From: a virus
Taxonomy: Duplodnaviria; Heunggongvirae; Uroviricota; Caudoviricetes
Direction: 5' to 3' (one strand)
Length of the DNA: 7,970 nucleotides
IMG/VR virus record: IMGVR_UViG_2698536392_000014
Coordinates: 1 to 7,970 of that record
Under the pieces are notes generated by a model. That model saw nothing but the letters and a program-made list of their open reading frames with translations. It ran no database searches and was not told the DNA's origin. The position numbers and the translations under genes were made by a program. The stretch's first letter is position 1; the number at the start of each line of letters is the position of its first letter. Positions 1,762-4,855 of the stretch are shown here, piece by piece.

Positions 1762-1950
1762 TTATTGACGTTCTCCGAAAATACCAAGTTCAAGAAGAGC
1801 AATTCGGGAAAGTATGGAATTATCATTGAGCAGATAAGGCTCATATTTCCTCATATTAATGGCATCTTCAGTAAACTCCCGGTTACTGAGCAGAACACCA
1901 ATATCAAAACAACCTTCAGACGTATTAACGTTTGGTAATAACGTTTCCAT
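1762..1950 (-). CDS. small hypothetical protein, 62 aa (METLLPNVNTSEGCFDIGV...)
   Basis: The ORF track gives 1762..2055 from a GTG; an internal ATG at 1950 is preceded by GAGGA 7 nt upstream and is the more plausible start. Same strand as neighbouring leftward genes. No family recognised. Confidence 0.4.
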   Translation of the reverse strand: METLLPNVNTSEGCFDIGVLLSNREFTEDAINMRKYEPYLLNDNSILSRIALLELGIFGERQ

Positions 1951-2518: not shown

Positions 2519-2737
2519 TTAACGCGGGTATGTAATCATTCTGGCAATGCTTAATGCCGCTGCTTTTTCCAGATTGGTGATATCCTGCTCCAGAGCGGAC
2601 AGATTTTCAGCCTGCTTAGCCCTGGCTTCATTGGCCCATTTCAGCTCCTGCGCTGCATTAATTTTCTGGTGCATCCACTCATAAAGTTCATCATCGGTAT
2701 AGTCTGGCGCGATGATGACGGGTTCTCGTTTCTGCAT
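2519..2737 (-). CDS. small hypothetical protein, 72 aa
   Basis: ATG at 2737 preceded by a consensus AAGGAG Shine-Dalgarno 5 nt upstream (reverse complement of CTCCTT at 2743-2748); TAA stop at 2519-2521. Predicted helical and charged. No family recognised. Confidence 0.55.
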   Translation of the reverse strand: MQKREPVIIAPDYTDDELYEWMHQKINAAQELKWANEARAKQAENLSALEQDITNLEKAAALSIARMITYPR

Positions 2738-2828
2738 GTCGGCTCCTTGTGGTTAGCGTTGCCTGCTTTTAACCACGTCAGGCGAGGTGGTATCCTTTGA
2801 GGGTCTGTTACTCGAGAGGAAATTGGTT

Positions 2829-3029
2829 ATGAATACAATCAAGTTTTCTTGCCCAGAATGTGGCGGCGAAGTCTTTGACACATCCTTTAAACCGCATGGC
2901 TCTGACAGTTTCGCGGGAGCCATCTGCAAAAATTGTGGTCACCTTGTAACTGAAGATGAGTCCTCGCAGTTTGATGACGAAATCGTTGACAATATCTTCG
3001 GTGCACTCACCAGAGACTTTCTGAAGTAA
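2829..3029 (+). CDS. small zinc-ribbon protein, 66 aa (CPEC-x22-CKNC)
   Basis: ATG at 2829 with GAGAGGA 8 nt upstream; two CxxC pairs with zinc-ribbon spacing; acidic C-terminal tail; no rare codons. Overlapped codon-on-codon by an antisense ORF (2808..3164), treated here as its shadow. Confidence 0.5.
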   Translation: MNTIKFSCPECGGEVFDTSFKPHGSDSFAGAICKNCGHLVTEDESSQFDDEIVDNIFGALTRDFLK

Positions 3030-3078
3030 AGGCGCATACCGCTTAGTTACCGCTCTGATAATTCTTACCTGTCCGGCA

Positions 3079-3116
3079 ATGGCGCTGATATCAATATAAA
3101 GCGCCATCGCTGTTTC
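3079..3116 (+). terminator. candidate terminator hairpin downstream of the zinc-ribbon gene
   Basis: Perfect 8-bp stem ATGGCGCT (3079-3086) with AGCGCCAT (3100-3107), 13-nt loop, followed by a T-rich tract CGCTGTTTCTTT. The long loop makes it atypical. Confidence 0.35.
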
Positions 3117-3342
3117 TTTGCTGATCCCAGGATGCCTTCCATTCTGATGTTTGACTTCGCCCACTGAGAAATCCTCTGTTTCCCCTTAACGCCGGGGTAG
3201 CGGAACAAAAAACCTGCTGCATAGTTAAACGTAATCCCCGCCGTCATGTTCATACGCCTCAGGCTGGCTACTTAACCCCTGACCACAGCCGGGTAACTCG
3301 AAGTATTGCCCTGCATTCTGTGAAGCGGGGTGGGTTGCAATG

Positions 3343-3371
3343 AATGTAAGAATATTTAGTTTTGTCGTCAA
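3343..3371 (-). promoter_or_regulatory. candidate leftward sigma70 promoter (PL-like) just downstream of the repressor gene
   Basis: On the minus strand: TTGACG (3371..3366), 17-bp spacer, TACATT (3348..3343). Would drive transcription away from the repressor 3' end into the leftward arm. Confidence 0.4.
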
Positions 3372-3372
3372 G

Positions 3373-3395
3373 TTGAATATAAATATTTTTAAGAT
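3373..3395. repeat. copy 1 of the motif TTGAATATAAAT(ATTTTTAAGAT), candidate operator or UP-like element
   Basis: First 12 bp are identical to 4102-4113; lies immediately upstream of the leftward -35. Confidence 0.45.
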
Positions 3396-3440
3396 AAAAG
3401 GCCGACAAAGCCGACCTCTGATTACAGGGCAAAGCGGGAG

Positions 3441-4085
3441 CTAGAGGCTGAACTGAACACCTTTTGCTACAGCAACGATGTTACATTCCGGTGTAAGTAA
3501 GGATGATTGATAGCGTGGGTTAAGGGGGGCTAAGTACACGAGCTTTCCATCAATAACTAATTTTTTTATAGTCATGGATGGTTCGTTTGTGAGTGGATCT
3601 GGGACTATTACTGCGACGATGCTACCATTTTTATATTTTTCGCCAGGCCTCATGATCACTGTGGCTCCAACTGGAATGCTTGGGGATCCTGATGGATTGT
3701 GCATAGTATCATCAGGCATTGAAACGGCAAAATCTCCCTCCTTGACATCAAAGAATGTGGTGATCCTGTCGACATTTCCCATAGTTTTCTCTCCTTTTAA
3801 TATTAGGAAAGAAATCGCTTCTCCCCAAGAAAGGTATGGGATTTGGGTACCTGGATTTTTCTGCACAAGGGATGATTCAGGTGATGATACTCCATACAGG
3901 AGATAGGACTCAGTAGTGCCTAGTGCTAGGGCTAATTTACTAAGAGCTTTGCTACCTGGTTCGTTTAGATCTTTCTCCCAGTATCCTATTGTTACCCCAG
4001 TTACGCCAGAAAGCTTGCCAAGTTCAACTTGGGTCAGACCTTTGTCTTTTCTGAGTTTCTTAAGCCTAATGCCAAGGCTTTCCAT
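3441..4085 (-). CDS. LexA/cI-type phage repressor (N-terminal HTH, C-terminal S24 autopeptidase domain), 214 aa
   Basis: N-terminal HTH (..KGLTQVELGKLSGVTGVTIGYWE..); C-terminal S24-like region with candidate catalytic Ser (..FAVSMPDD..) and Lys (..TIKKLVIDGKLVYLAP..); GGGAG Shine-Dalgarno 6 nt before ATG at 4085; divergent from a Cro-like gene. Confidence 0.9.
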   Translation of the reverse strand: MESLGIRLKKLRKDKGLTQVELGKLSGVTGVTIGYWEKDLNEPGSKALSKLALALGTTESYLLYGVSSPESSLVQKNPGTQIPYLSWGEAISFLILKGEKTMGNVDRITTFFDVKEGDFAVSMPDDTMHNPSGSPSIPVGATVIMRPGEKYKNGSIVAVIVPDPLTNEPSMTIKKLVIDGKLVYLAPLNPRYQSSLLTPECNIVAVAKGVQFSL

Positions 4086-4101
4086 TATTTTCTCCCGCGA
4101 A

Positions 4102-4123
4102 TTGAATATAAATTATTTTAGAT
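4102..4123. repeat. copy 2 of the motif TTGAATATAAAT(TATTTTAGAT) in the repressor/cro intergenic region
   Basis: Same 12-bp core as 3373-3384, same orientation. Its reverse complement contains a TATATT -10-like hexamer suitable for a PRM-like repressor promoter. Sits just upstream of the rightward -35. Confidence 0.45.
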
Positions 4124-4127
4124 TGTA

Positions 4128-4156
4128 TTGACCTAAAAAAAATTACCCTTTAATCT
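4128..4156 (+). promoter_or_regulatory. candidate rightward sigma70 promoter (PR-like) for the cro-like operon
   Basis: TTGACC (4128-4133), 17-bp spacer, TAATCT (4151-4156); about 30 nt upstream of the cro-like ATG, which has an AAGGGGAG Shine-Dalgarno. An imperfect inverted repeat ATTTTAG...CTAAAA spans the -35. Confidence 0.5.
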
Positions 4157-4184
4157 AAAAATACTTAGTTTTAAGGGGAGCGAA

Positions 4185-4412
4185 ATGCGAGTTGATGAAC
4201 TTGTCCAGTTTTTTGGTTCTGTCCAAAGAGTCGCTGATTTTTATGGGGTAACCCGAGAAGCTATATACATGTGGCGTAAGCGTCCCGGCGAAATAGTTCC
4301 CAAGGGGAGGGCTGCTGAAGCAGTTGCATACTCCAAGGGAAAATTATCGTTGAACCCAGAACTTTACAAAAAGAAGGATAACACCTCGAACGAAAGGAAA
4401 AATGATTCATGA
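4185..4412 (+). CDS. Cro-like HTH regulator (P22 Cro / YdaS-like), 75 aa
   Basis: Divergent from the repressor; strong Shine-Dalgarno; the HTH segment (..FGSVQRVADFYGVTREAIYMWRK..) resembles, from memory, the P22 Cro / YdaS pattern (..FGTQRAVAKALGISDAAVSQWK..). Confidence 0.8.
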   Translation: MRVDELVQFFGSVQRVADFYGVTREAIYMWRKRPGEIVPKGRAAEAVAYSKGKLSLNPELYKKKDNTSNERKNDS

Positions 4413-4705
4413 AAATCAAACATGAACACATCCGCATGGCGATGAATGCCTGGGCATATCCTGATGGTGAGAAAGTGCCTGCAGCTGAAATAGCCCGGAC
4501 TTATTTCGAACTTGGGATGACGTTCCCGGAACTGTACGACGACAGCCATCCGGAAGCCCTGGCCCGTAATACCCAGAAAATTTTCCGCTGGGTGGAGAAG
4601 GATACGCCTGATGCGGTTGAAAAAATTCAGGCGCTGTTACCGGCGATCGAAAAGGCGATGCCGCCTTTGCTGGTGGCCCGTATGCGCAGTCACAGTTCTG
4701 AATAA
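4409..4705 (+). CDS. YdaT-like / CII-analogue small regulator, 98 aa
   Basis: Start overlaps the cro-like stop (ATGA at 4409-4412), with AAAGGA 10 nt upstream. The N-terminus MKIKHEHI... matches my recollection of YdaT-family proteins that follow Cro-like genes in Rac-type prophages. The family assignment is recalled, not verified. Confidence 0.7.
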   Translation: MKIKHEHIRMAMNAWAYPDGEKVPAAEIARTYFELGMTFPELYDDSHPEALARNTQKIFRWVEKDTPDAVEKIQALLPAIEKAMPPLLVARMRSHSSE

Positions 4706-4855
4706 ATGGCTGAACTGCTGAATGATGCACATCCGGAATGGAGTTTAAGAACCTGTGAAAGACGCATTGAGCATTGGCTAAAGGTGGCAGAATTTATTTT
4801 GTACAAACCAATGGTTATGGCTTCTGGTATAGAGAAAAAAGTTATTGCTTTTTGA
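4706..4855 (+). CDS. possible small ORF, 49 aa, coupled to the preceding gene (TAAATG)
   Basis: ATG directly follows the TAA of the YdaT-like gene and ends before the intrinsic terminator; no Shine-Dalgarno of its own. Below the 60-aa cutoff of the ORF track; found by hand translation. Confidence 0.3.
   Translation: MAELLNDAHPEWSLRTCERRIEHWLKVAEFILYKPMVMASGIEKKVIAF

Follow-up and report, generated by a model that had tools for sequence, protein, structure and literature searches.

The window analysed here, a stretch of 7,970 nucleotides, is part of a defective Qin/dicB-type lambdoid prophage from Shiga-toxin-type E. coli, and we consider it highly probable that its region 3343–4171, taken jointly with all operators and promoters assigned to it, constitutes an immunity switch (immC) on the plan of phage P22. 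In this switch, a dimeric c2/cI-type repressor and a Cro protein of the P22_Cro family would recognise 18-bp dyad operators and control the promoters PR, PL and PRM (Table 1). OR1 would cover the −10 element and start of PR, a weak OR2, probably filled cooperatively, would cover the PR −35, and OR3 would cover the repressor's own maintenance promoter. OL1 and OL2 are predicted to flank the −35 of PL just beyond the repressor terminator, with OL1 on the −10 and OL2 upstream. With repressor on OR1/OR2 and OL1/OL2, both PR (cro-ydaT) and PL (the ydfC-dicF-dicB cell-division inhibitors) would be turned off, and occupancy of OR3 would limit repressor synthesis. The model builds on the sequences of the sites, their symmetry, conservation and geometry, and on protein homology, from which we infer binding, order of occupancy, promoter activity and cooperativity.

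Table 1. Genes, RNA, promoters, repeats and predicted operators of the window
Feature	Position	Strand	Evidence and remarks
dicB	1762–1950		annotated; on the other side of dicF from ydfC
DicF small RNA	2125–2176	−	Rfam RF00039, 75 bits (gathering score 48)
ydfC	2519–2737		annotated; on one side of dicF
OL1, predicted operator	3343–3362 (core 3344–3361)		AATGTAAGAATATTTAGTTT; 12/14 to AATCTAA-N6-TTAGATT; overlaps PL −10
PL-like promoter (dicBp equivalent)	−35 TTGACG 3371–3366; 17 bp; −10 TACATT 3348–3343	−	scanner 9/12
Left (OL) 12-mer copy	3373–3384	+	exact match; non-conserved TTG flank plus left half-site of OL2
OL2, weak predicted operator	3376–3395 (core 3377–3394)		AATATAAATATTTTTAAGAT; 10/14, right half poor; upstream of PL −35
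Terminator-like hairpin with U-run, after repressor gene	3397–3419	−	10-bp stem; minimum-free-energy fold −13.7 kcal/mol, z = −1.5
cI/c2-type repressor gene (214 aa)	3441–4085	−	Pfam HTH_3 (E 8e-12) and Peptidase_S24 (E 1e-10)
Right (OR) 12-mer copy	4102–4113	+	exact match; TTG plus left (cI-proximal) half-site of OR3
OR3, predicted operator	4105–4124 (core 4106–4123)		AATATAAATTATTTTAGATT; 13/14; overlaps both candidate PRM −10s
Candidate PRM −10 hexamers	TATATT 4110–4105; TAAAAT 4120–4115	−	inferred; neither with a good −35
PR-like promoter	−35 TTGACC 4128–4133; 17 bp; −10 TAATCT 4151–4156	+	direct sequence reading; conserved
OR2, weak predicted operator	4130–4149 (core 4131–4148)		GACCTAAAAAAAATTACCCT; 9/14; overlaps PR −35 and spacer
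OR1, predicted operator	4152–4171 (core 4153–4170)		AATCTAAAAATACTTAGTTT; 13/14; overlaps PR −10 and start
cro-like gene (75 aa)	4185–4412	+	Pfam P22_Cro PF14549, 37.2 bits (cutoff 30.2); RefSeq: Cro/CI family regulator
YdaT-type dyad, cro/ydaT junction	4402–4419		ATGATTCATGAAAATCAA; 1 mismatch to TTGATT-N6-AATCAA
Truncated ydaT, cII-equivalent position	4409–4705	+	Pfam YdaT_toxin; RefSeq pseudogene, C-terminus missing

The original prediction described a LexA/cI-type repressor gene bracketed by two outward promoters, and this arrangement of OL/PL, repressor, OR/PR and cro is well supported. Between the promoters, a minus-strand gene indeed encodes a protein with HTH_3 and Peptidase_S24 domains. 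Its N-terminal domain finds its best PDB match in P22 c2 (E 8.8e-7) and its C-terminal domain matches that of lambda cI (E 5e-5), at an overall identity to P22 c2 of 31%. The protein is identical to RefSeq WP_000444611.1 (LexA family protein) and occurs in other genomes as well. Repressor gene and cro diverge from a 99-bp intergenic region that holds the OR operators, and the OL operators lie downstream of the repressor gene. Here, the stem and a longer T-run of the hairpin are conserved in relatives, suggesting a terminator, albeit one that the scanner did not call.

Both promoters are found where they had been predicted. The leftward one (predicted start near 3336) is called by the consensus scanner and reads TTGACA-17-TATATT in the closest relatives and TTGACT-17-TAGATT in others. 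The rightward one (predicted start near 4163) scores 8/12 and is unlisted by the scanner because its −10 matches the consensus at only 3/6 positions; it is backed by conservation and by positional homology with P22 and mEp460. As for the maintenance promoter, the TATATT hexamer originally put forward as its −10 is a possible choice, but TAAAAT occupies the position homologous to that of the P22 PRM −10 (P22 position from the BK000583 annotation, mapped onto OR3), and a TAARAT hexamer is kept there in all distant relatives. A further scanner call on the minus strand, TTTATA-17-AATAAT (4112→4084), was rejected as PRM, as transcription from it would begin within the repressor ORF, ~8 nt beyond the ATG.

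What is the 12-bp repeat that had been noticed at both promoters? String matching recovers TTGAATATAAAT as two exact plus-strand copies, with no further copy in the window (next best, 2 mismatches) or in the 25-kb context (L001). When the two regulatory segments were subjected to local dinucleotide-preserving shuffles, an exact shared word of at least 12 nt appeared in 0.54% of 5000 trials (P ~0.005), and the sharing is unlikely to be due to chance. The original prediction had, however, doubted that the 12-mer itself is the operator, rightly so: its sequence suggests a composite of a TTG flank, a left half-site and two spacer bases of a larger 18/20-bp dyad operator, namely OR3 and OL2. Because these operator sites are palindromic, the puzzle of why both copies point the same way along one strand disappears.

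In related prophages, the two copies fared differently. The OR copy, TTG included, is invariant in all aligned E. coli relatives and in 44 IMG/VR contigs, whereas the OL copy is conserved only within the sub-lineage of the window (L009–L011) and is missing from 84%-identical relatives, such that only 6 of the 44 viral contigs with the same OR carry both. In other relatives, the OL2 position reads GGTAAATCTAGAT, GGGGAATCTAAAT or GTGTGATCTAGAT, that is, AATCTARAT with different flanks, and the AATATAA half-site variant of OR3 recurs at OL2 in the window's own sub-lineage. With its OL copy not conserved, the 12-mer was ruled out as the operator. A related reading takes it as a discrete site, bound by the repressor or another factor as a direct, non-palindromic repeat, for instance in OL-OR loop pairing. 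Although two exact copies in one orientation, an invariant OR copy and a similarity that extends, with indels, beyond the 12-mer (family D1) would fit such a site, we regard it as very unlikely: the OL copy is missing from most of those relatives whose recognition helix and OR are identical to the ones here, and at OL2 all variants agree only in ATNTARAT, the core of the left half-site, with the TTG and other flanks varying freely. Moreover, the copies had been placed immediately upstream of each −35, which is true at PL (1 bp) but not at PR (14 bp), and the 12-mer does not occur in OR1 and OL1, the strongest and conserved operators, located over the PR and PL −10 hexamers. Finally, the protein in question is a P22 c2-like HTH repressor, for which dimeric binding to dyads is to be expected.

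The dyad model accommodates these observations, with a predicted functional unit of 18 bp (ATCTAAR-N4-YTTAGAT) or, in its 20-bp form, AATCTAA-N6-TTAGATT. Allowing up to 3 mismatches, the 20-mer pattern matches the 7970 bp only at OL1, OR3 and OR1 (expected, 0.55; three matches in 3 of 200 shuffles), a consensus partly derived from the very sites that it then scored. Scanning the 25-kb context returned no sites beyond those three. The sequence scores of OR2 and OL2 are at chance level in the window, and both assignments draw on position and relatives. A de novo search for inverted repeats (7-N6-7) was discarded as a diagnostic, since symmetry by itself does not discriminate: unrelated GC-rich dyads were numerous, and a half-site was common to the two OR sites only. 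In a full-text literature search, the operator strings gave no matches, and a prior description of these operators was not found.

Comparison with relatives lends further weight to the dyads. The OR core (4102–4161) is the least variable stretch of the cI-cro region, with 3–10% variable columns compared to ~20% in the adjoining coding DNA; part of this strong conservation could be the outcome of recent recombination, not of selection. In relatives, the symmetry of OR1 is perfect (7+7 dyad, ATCTAAAAATACTTAGAT) and OR3 does not vary; Arsenophonus, Xenorhabdus and mEp460 each have a homologue of OR3 that precedes the −35 by 22 bp. The OR2 position relative to the −35, which corresponds to that of P22 OR2, holds good sites in Xenorhabdus (ATCTAAATGAAATTAGGA, ATCAAAATAAACTTAGAA), and OL1 reads AATCTAAAAGTATTTAGTTT or AATATAAGAATATTTAGTTT in relatives. 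Even next to repressors of 41–53% identity (Arsenophonus, Phlomobacter, two Xenorhabdus species and phage mEp460), ATCTAAR half-sites are retained at OR3, OR2 and OR1 relative to the −35, as is the OL1 half-site wherever the OL region is readable, and the recognition helix of these proteins is nearly identical (GV[TS]GVTVGYWEKD). Among the E. coli sub-lineages, the helix is identical and no co-variation of helix and half-site was found; judging from the sequences, position 3 of the half-site seems to tolerate C, A or G.

Could the region instead be a decayed remnant with no working switch, its promoter hexamers non-functional and its repeat a product of chance in two AT-rich intergenic segments? 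The base composition (64–74% A+T) and the number of promoter-like matches across the region, which equals the shuffle expectation, would be compatible with this, as would the private changes of the window in OL1 and the PL −10 (TACATT for TATATT) and the defects of the prophage, comprising a truncated ydaT, a truncated exonuclease, IS elements and the absence of replication genes. Yet we deem this extremely improbable given the P value of the 12-mer, an OR core that is the most conserved segment, intact repressor and cro genes (the former identical in other genomes) and an operator geometry kept across genera. By analogy with Qin, the repressor would also be expected to be needed for silencing toxic dicB/dicF (PMC10448788).

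The original prediction likened the layout to the two-operator architecture of lambda. The layout itself holds, but P22 immC is the closer model. While the overall logic is shared with lambda and the repressor C-terminal domain is homologous to that of lambda cI, lambda operators are 17 bp long and unrelated in sequence, and OL and OR are 2.4 kb apart rather than 0.8 kb. P22 immC has the same gene order as the window and likewise an 18-bp dyad with 7-bp half-sites and a 4-bp centre, the half-site differing essentially at one position (ATCTAAR here, ATTTAAG in P22). Measured against the P22 operators and promoters of BK000583, an inferred (TPA_inf) GenBank annotation, site spacings and −35 positions agree within 1–2 bp: OR3-OR2-OR1 centres are spaced by 25/22 bp here and 25/23 bp in P22, and OL1-OL2 centres by 33 and 35 bp, respectively. 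In both, the PR −35 begins 4 bp past OR3 and reaches 3 nt into OR2, and OL1 ends 4 bp before the PL −35. The distance from OL1 to OR1 is 809 bp, compared to 819 bp in P22. Differences exist as well. The specificity residues of the recognition helix (VTGVTIGYWEKD here, VSNVAISQWERS in P22 c2) are not the same, pointing to a different immunity type. P22 has OL1–3, whereas two OL sites are recognisable here and a third was not found; a 20-bp leader with a Shine-Dalgarno sequence intervenes between OR3 and the repressor ATG; and ydaT takes the cII position that c1 occupies in P22.

To the left, the PL-like promoter is likely to drive a ydfC-dicF-dicB operon, with co-transcription assumed from Qin (PMC10448788). 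DicF was the sole match in an Rfam search of the window. Unlike in P22, where gene 24 (N) and nutL are present, neither an N-type antiterminator gene nor a nut site was found beyond PL; PL appears to serve ydfC, dicF and dicB instead. A nut- or put-like RNA structure in the conserved PL leader (3226–3338) was considered and dismissed, with neither compensatory changes nor an Rfam match, and the conserved leader 3238–3327 is likewise without covarying structure.

The leftward operon, with its PL-equivalent promoter adjoining the repressor gene, is the same as that of the dicA-dicC/dicBp region of Qin in K-12. There, dicBp and dicCp are repressed by DicA, which acts at inverted-repeat operators of 20 nt, and such operators together with a bistable cI/Cro-like pair are features common to both systems (PMC3441716; PMC10448788). 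The N-terminal domain of the repressor resembles the DicA model weakly, as Cro does the DicC model, with NCBIfam cutoffs not reached (42.2 vs 101 bits for the repressor, 32.5 vs 130 bits for Cro), and DicA, at 135 aa, has no counterpart to the S24-like C-terminal domain of this repressor. Searches of both regulatory regions for Oc, the operator of Qin DicA (TTGTTAGTCATAACTAACAA; TTGTTAG-N6-CTAACAA), found nothing at up to 3 mismatches.

CP-933P (paaR2/ydaS/ydaT) and Rac (racR/ydaS/ydaT) resemble the window in having a cro-like gene followed by ydaT in the cII position, the latter truncated only here, and in a YdaT-type dyad at the cro/ydaT junction (PMC9986795). As the footprinted OM site of CP-933P YdaT has the same location (PMC9986795), the dyad is a possible PRE-like control site. 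For CP-933P, an OR/OL/PL logic was shown experimentally (PMC8630535). PaaR2 and RacR, however, have no S24 domain and represent a different repressor family, and the CP-933P operator consensus consists of GTTTAGTAA-type repeats, unlike the one described here.

Conceptually, none of this is new: the classic P22/lambda switch recurs here with another specificity, and the repeat is real but ordinary. What the analysis yields is a testable map of five sites, a consensus and three promoters for one common immunity type of dicB/dicF prophages, found in 474 of 5426 complete E. coli genomes (O157:H7, O145 and O111 among them); strains O145:H28 RM13514 and EDL933 carry a related prophage. Such an operator map indicates which bases would have to be changed for DicF and DicB, the cell-division inhibitors, to be derepressed or locked.

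The repressor itself displays a peculiarity. Aligned with P22 c2, mEp460 and lambda cI, it reads Ala-Ile at the cleavage site (canonically Ala-Gly) and Thr (DDTM) at the position of the catalytic Ser (GDSM), with the Lys kept, and does not bear the canonical signature of RecA-stimulated self-cleavage (Ala-Gly plus Ser/Lys dyad). An antirepressor-like gene of the prophage lies at 20168–20737 of the 25-kb context (L001). Tentatively, and with more doubt than conviction, we suggest a clade of P22 c2-like repressors, spanning E. coli, Arsenophonus, Phlomobacter and, in part, Xenorhabdus, that lost RecA-dependent self-cleavage (Ala-Gly to Ala-Ile or Ala-Leu, Ser to Thr) and kept the S24-like domain only for oligomerisation. 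If true, exact identity of the OR3 and OL2 half-sites in the sub-lineage could mark a preferred OL-OR pairing, and the switch controlling dicBF in Shiga-toxin-type E. coli would be blind to the SOS response, flipping by antirepressor or stochastically, as for DicA/Rem in Qin.

What does the repeated 12-mer contribute to this switch? TTGAATATAAAT indeed occurs as two exact plus-strand copies, at 3373-3384 and 4102-4113, and a search for unrelated copies in the 25-kb genomic context found none besides these two. Dinucleotide-preserving shuffles of the two regulatory segments (n=5000) gave a shared exact word of at least 12 nt in 27 trials; the repeat thus exceeds what AT-richness yields. The original prediction placed the motif immediately upstream of each -35 hexamer, which holds for the leftward promoter PL (1 bp away) but not for the rightward promoter PR (14 bp away). 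Conservation of both copies did not bear out: the left one is kept only in the window's own sub-lineage (loci L009-L011, with an identical repressor protein), while the remaining relatives carry GGTAAATCTAGAT, GGGGAATCTAAAT or GTGTGATCTAGAT at this position, and merely 6 of the 44 IMG/VR contigs bearing this OR contain the 12-mer twice. Every variant retains the half-site core ATNTARAT there, with a freely variable TTG flank. Given the dyad match at OR3 (see table), the right copy consists of TTG, the left half-site AATATAA and two spacer bases of that operator. The 12-mer is therefore no more than one half of a conventional dyad operator, and its presence in two copies is a lineage-specific trait.

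Repeat analysis revealed a second shared element, AATGTAAGAATATTTAGTTTT (3343-3363) and AATCTAAAAATACTTAGTTTT (4152-4172), and identified 4102-4124 and 4152-4174 as inverted copies of one another. Allowing up to three mismatches, the 20-mer pattern AATCTAA-N6-TTAGATT matches the window only at OL1, OR3 and OR1, with 0.55 matches expected and three reached in 3 of 200 shuffles; the 25-kb context holds no further match. When the window is aligned to relatives sharing ~84% identity in the repressor gene, the right-hand region from 4102 to ~4172 is nearly invariant, and OR1 in these relatives is the perfect dyad AATCTAA-AAATAC-TTAGATT. In a six-lineage comparison, no part of the region varies less than the OR core (4102-4161), with 3-10% variable columns versus ~20% in flanking coding DNA, and variation in OL1 is confined to half-site position 3 and the spacer. 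The predicted operators are symmetrical and conserved, and they overlap promoter hexamers. The A-run at 4134-4142, lying in OR2 and the PR spacer, has eight A in the window and most contigs of IMG/VR loci L044-L087, seven in two and nine in three (one of these also with a C-to-A change beside it); its length alters both PR spacer length and OR2 half-site spacing.

Predicted operators, promoters and genes of the immunity region
Feature	Position	Strand	Description
dicB	1762-1950	minus
DicF small RNA	2125-2176	minus	Rfam, 75 bits
ydfC	2519-2737	minus
Zinc-ribbon ORF	2829-3029	plus	ECs_2282 family; antisense to PL transcription
OL1	3343-3362		20-mer pattern match
PL	3371 to 3343	minus	TTGACG-17-TACATT
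OL2	3376-3395		AATATAA-N6-TTAAGAT; 10/14 match, alone at chance level; holds left 12-mer copy
Repressor gene	3441-4085	minus	214 aa; HTH_3 and Peptidase_S24 domains
OR3	4105-4124		20-mer pattern match
PRM -10 candidate	4110 to 4105	minus	TATATT
PRM -10 candidate	4120 to 4115	minus	TAAAAT
PR	4128-4156	plus	TTGACC-17-TAATCT
OR2	4130-4149		GACCTAA-N6-TTACCCT; 9/14 match, alone at chance level
OR1	4152-4171		20-mer pattern match

The proposed layout, a repressor gene bracketed by operator/promoter regions, was right, and its closest counterpart is phage P22. When the 18-mers of P22 were located within its GenBank record, which annotates OR1-3, OL1-3, PR, PRM and PL, the predicted operator geometry of the window was almost superimposable: OR3-OR2-OR1 centres are spaced 25 and 22 bp apart (P22, 25 and 23), OL1 and OL2 33 bp (35), and OL1 and OR1 809 bp (819). 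In both, the PR -35 hexamer starts 4 bp after OR3 and covers the first 3 nt of OR2, and OL1 ends 4 bp before the PL -35. The architecture would be that of P22 immC, with a probably different binding specificity. In 18-mer form the window sites read ATCTAAR-N4-YTTAGAT, and the P22 consensus reads ATTTAAG-N4-CTTAAAT.

The strongest evidence that the dyads, rather than the 12-mer, would be the functional units comes from distant homologues. Scanning species-representative genomes yielded repressors with 45-53% identity to that of the window in Arsenophonus nasoniae, Candidatus Phlomobacter and two Xenorhabdus species; phage mEp460 encodes one that is 41-43% identical. The recognition helix (GV[TS]GVTVGYWEKD) is nearly the same in all of them. 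Their repressor-cro intergenic regions are very unlike that of the window, yet ATCTAAR-type half-sites stand at three positions that coincide with those of the window when measured from the -35. OR1 in Xenorhabdus is a perfect dyad (ATCTAAGTTTACTTAGAT), and OR2, weak in E. coli, is good there (ATCTAAATGAAATTAGGA, ATCAAAATAAACTTAGAA); in Arsenophonus, OL1 (ATATAAAATAACTTAGTT), the -35 hexamer and an OL2-like site follow in matching order.

Of the two promoters predicted originally, PL was recovered by a consensus scanner; PR lies at the predicted place, but its -10 matches at only 3/6 and the promoter is absent from the scanner list. PL is near-consensus in the closest relatives (TTGACA-17-TATATT). 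Comparing 3346 and 3366, the TACATT -10 of the window is a private substitution; its TTGACG -35 recurs in one of the three closest relatives, the other two having TTGACA. Such window-strain substitutions in OL1/PL may weaken either PL or OL1. For the maintenance promoter PRM, the TATATT favored originally is a good -10 hexamer and implies a leader of 13 nt, whereas TAAAAT is the positional homologue of the annotated P22 PRM -10 (TAAGAT); P22, mEp460, Arsenophonus and Xenorhabdus all have TAARAT there, its final AT contributed by the spacer. A -35 is not recognisable for either candidate, as would be expected of an activator-dependent promoter. A third scanner promoter (4112 to 4084) was rejected as PRM, since its start would fall within the ORF. 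The scanner also reported a terminator-like hairpin with T-run (4062-4080, plus strand) inside the repressor gene 5′ end, just upstream of OR; its count is within chance expectation.

The core (3200-4450, 1.25 kb) matches the E. coli strain 2013C-4830 chromosome at 100% identity. Of 5426 complete E. coli genomes, 474 contain the repressor-operator segment (3300-4200) at ≥80% coverage, O157:H7 EDL933, O145:H28 and O111 strains among them. By its RefSeq annotation, the surrounding 25 kb is a decayed lambdoid prophage with, from left to right, IS600, a truncated exonuclease, a DUF1482 gene, dicB and ydfC, the zinc-ribbon ORF, a 'LexA family protein', a 'Cro/CI family regulator', truncated ydaT, a DNA methyltransferase, iraM and lysis genes. 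Together with the Rfam DicF match, this places the switch within a defective prophage of the Qin/dicB type, in its immunity region. Decay is visible at 1-1482, where IS600 adjoins the exonuclease fragment, at 4409-4855, where truncated ydaT is fused to a DUF1133 fragment, and in the loss of replication genes found in relatives. Where relatives carry ydfA/ydfB, the window has unrelated DNA (2740-3237) with the zinc-ribbon ORF. The initial ~90 nt transcribed from PL (3238-3327, minus strand) are strongly conserved, with no compensatory base-pair changes among the relatives compared.

By analogy with the P22 and lambda paradigm and with Qin (PMC3441716; PMC10448788), PR (cro, ydaT) would be blocked by repressor dimers sitting on OR1 and OR2, and PL, hence the ydfC-dicF-dicB operon, by dimers on OL1 and OL2. 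With DicF and dicB downstream of PL, the switch would control cell-division inhibitors, as in Qin. Since OR3 overlaps PRM, high levels of repressor or Cro would shut it off. In its left operon the region carries the Qin cargo, and its cII slot is ydaT-like, a trait shared with Rac and CP-933P. Membership in the DicA/DicC families was rejected: scores fall far under the family cutoffs, and neither regulatory region contains the DicA operator Oc. No papers containing the window operator strings were found; this particular operator map appears undescribed, yet of a thoroughly known kind.

The repressor is 31% identical to P22 c2 overall; the closest solved structure is the P22 c2 DNA-binding domain for its N-terminal domain (E 8.8e-7) and the lambda cI C-terminal domain for its own C-terminal domain. 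Residues ~90-91 are Ala-Ile, versus the Ala-Gly cleavage site of P22 c2, mEp460 and lambda cI, and residue ~127 is Thr (DDTM) instead of their nucleophile Ser (GDSM), with the Lys kept. Both changes are shared with the Arsenophonus and Phlomobacter homologues, whereas Xenorhabdus has Ala-Leu with Ser. This suggests a repressor that may be uncleavable in the SOS response, and an SOS-independent switch like DicA/Rem (PMC10448788). To the right of the repressor gene lie a P22_Cro-family protein and a YdaT-family fragment. Where cro stops and ydaT starts, a location described as PRE-equivalent in CP-933P, a dyad (ATGATTCATGAAAATCAA, 4402-4419) differs by one mismatch from the footprinted YdaT site TTGATT-N6-AATCAA (PMC9986795); ydaT itself is truncated here.
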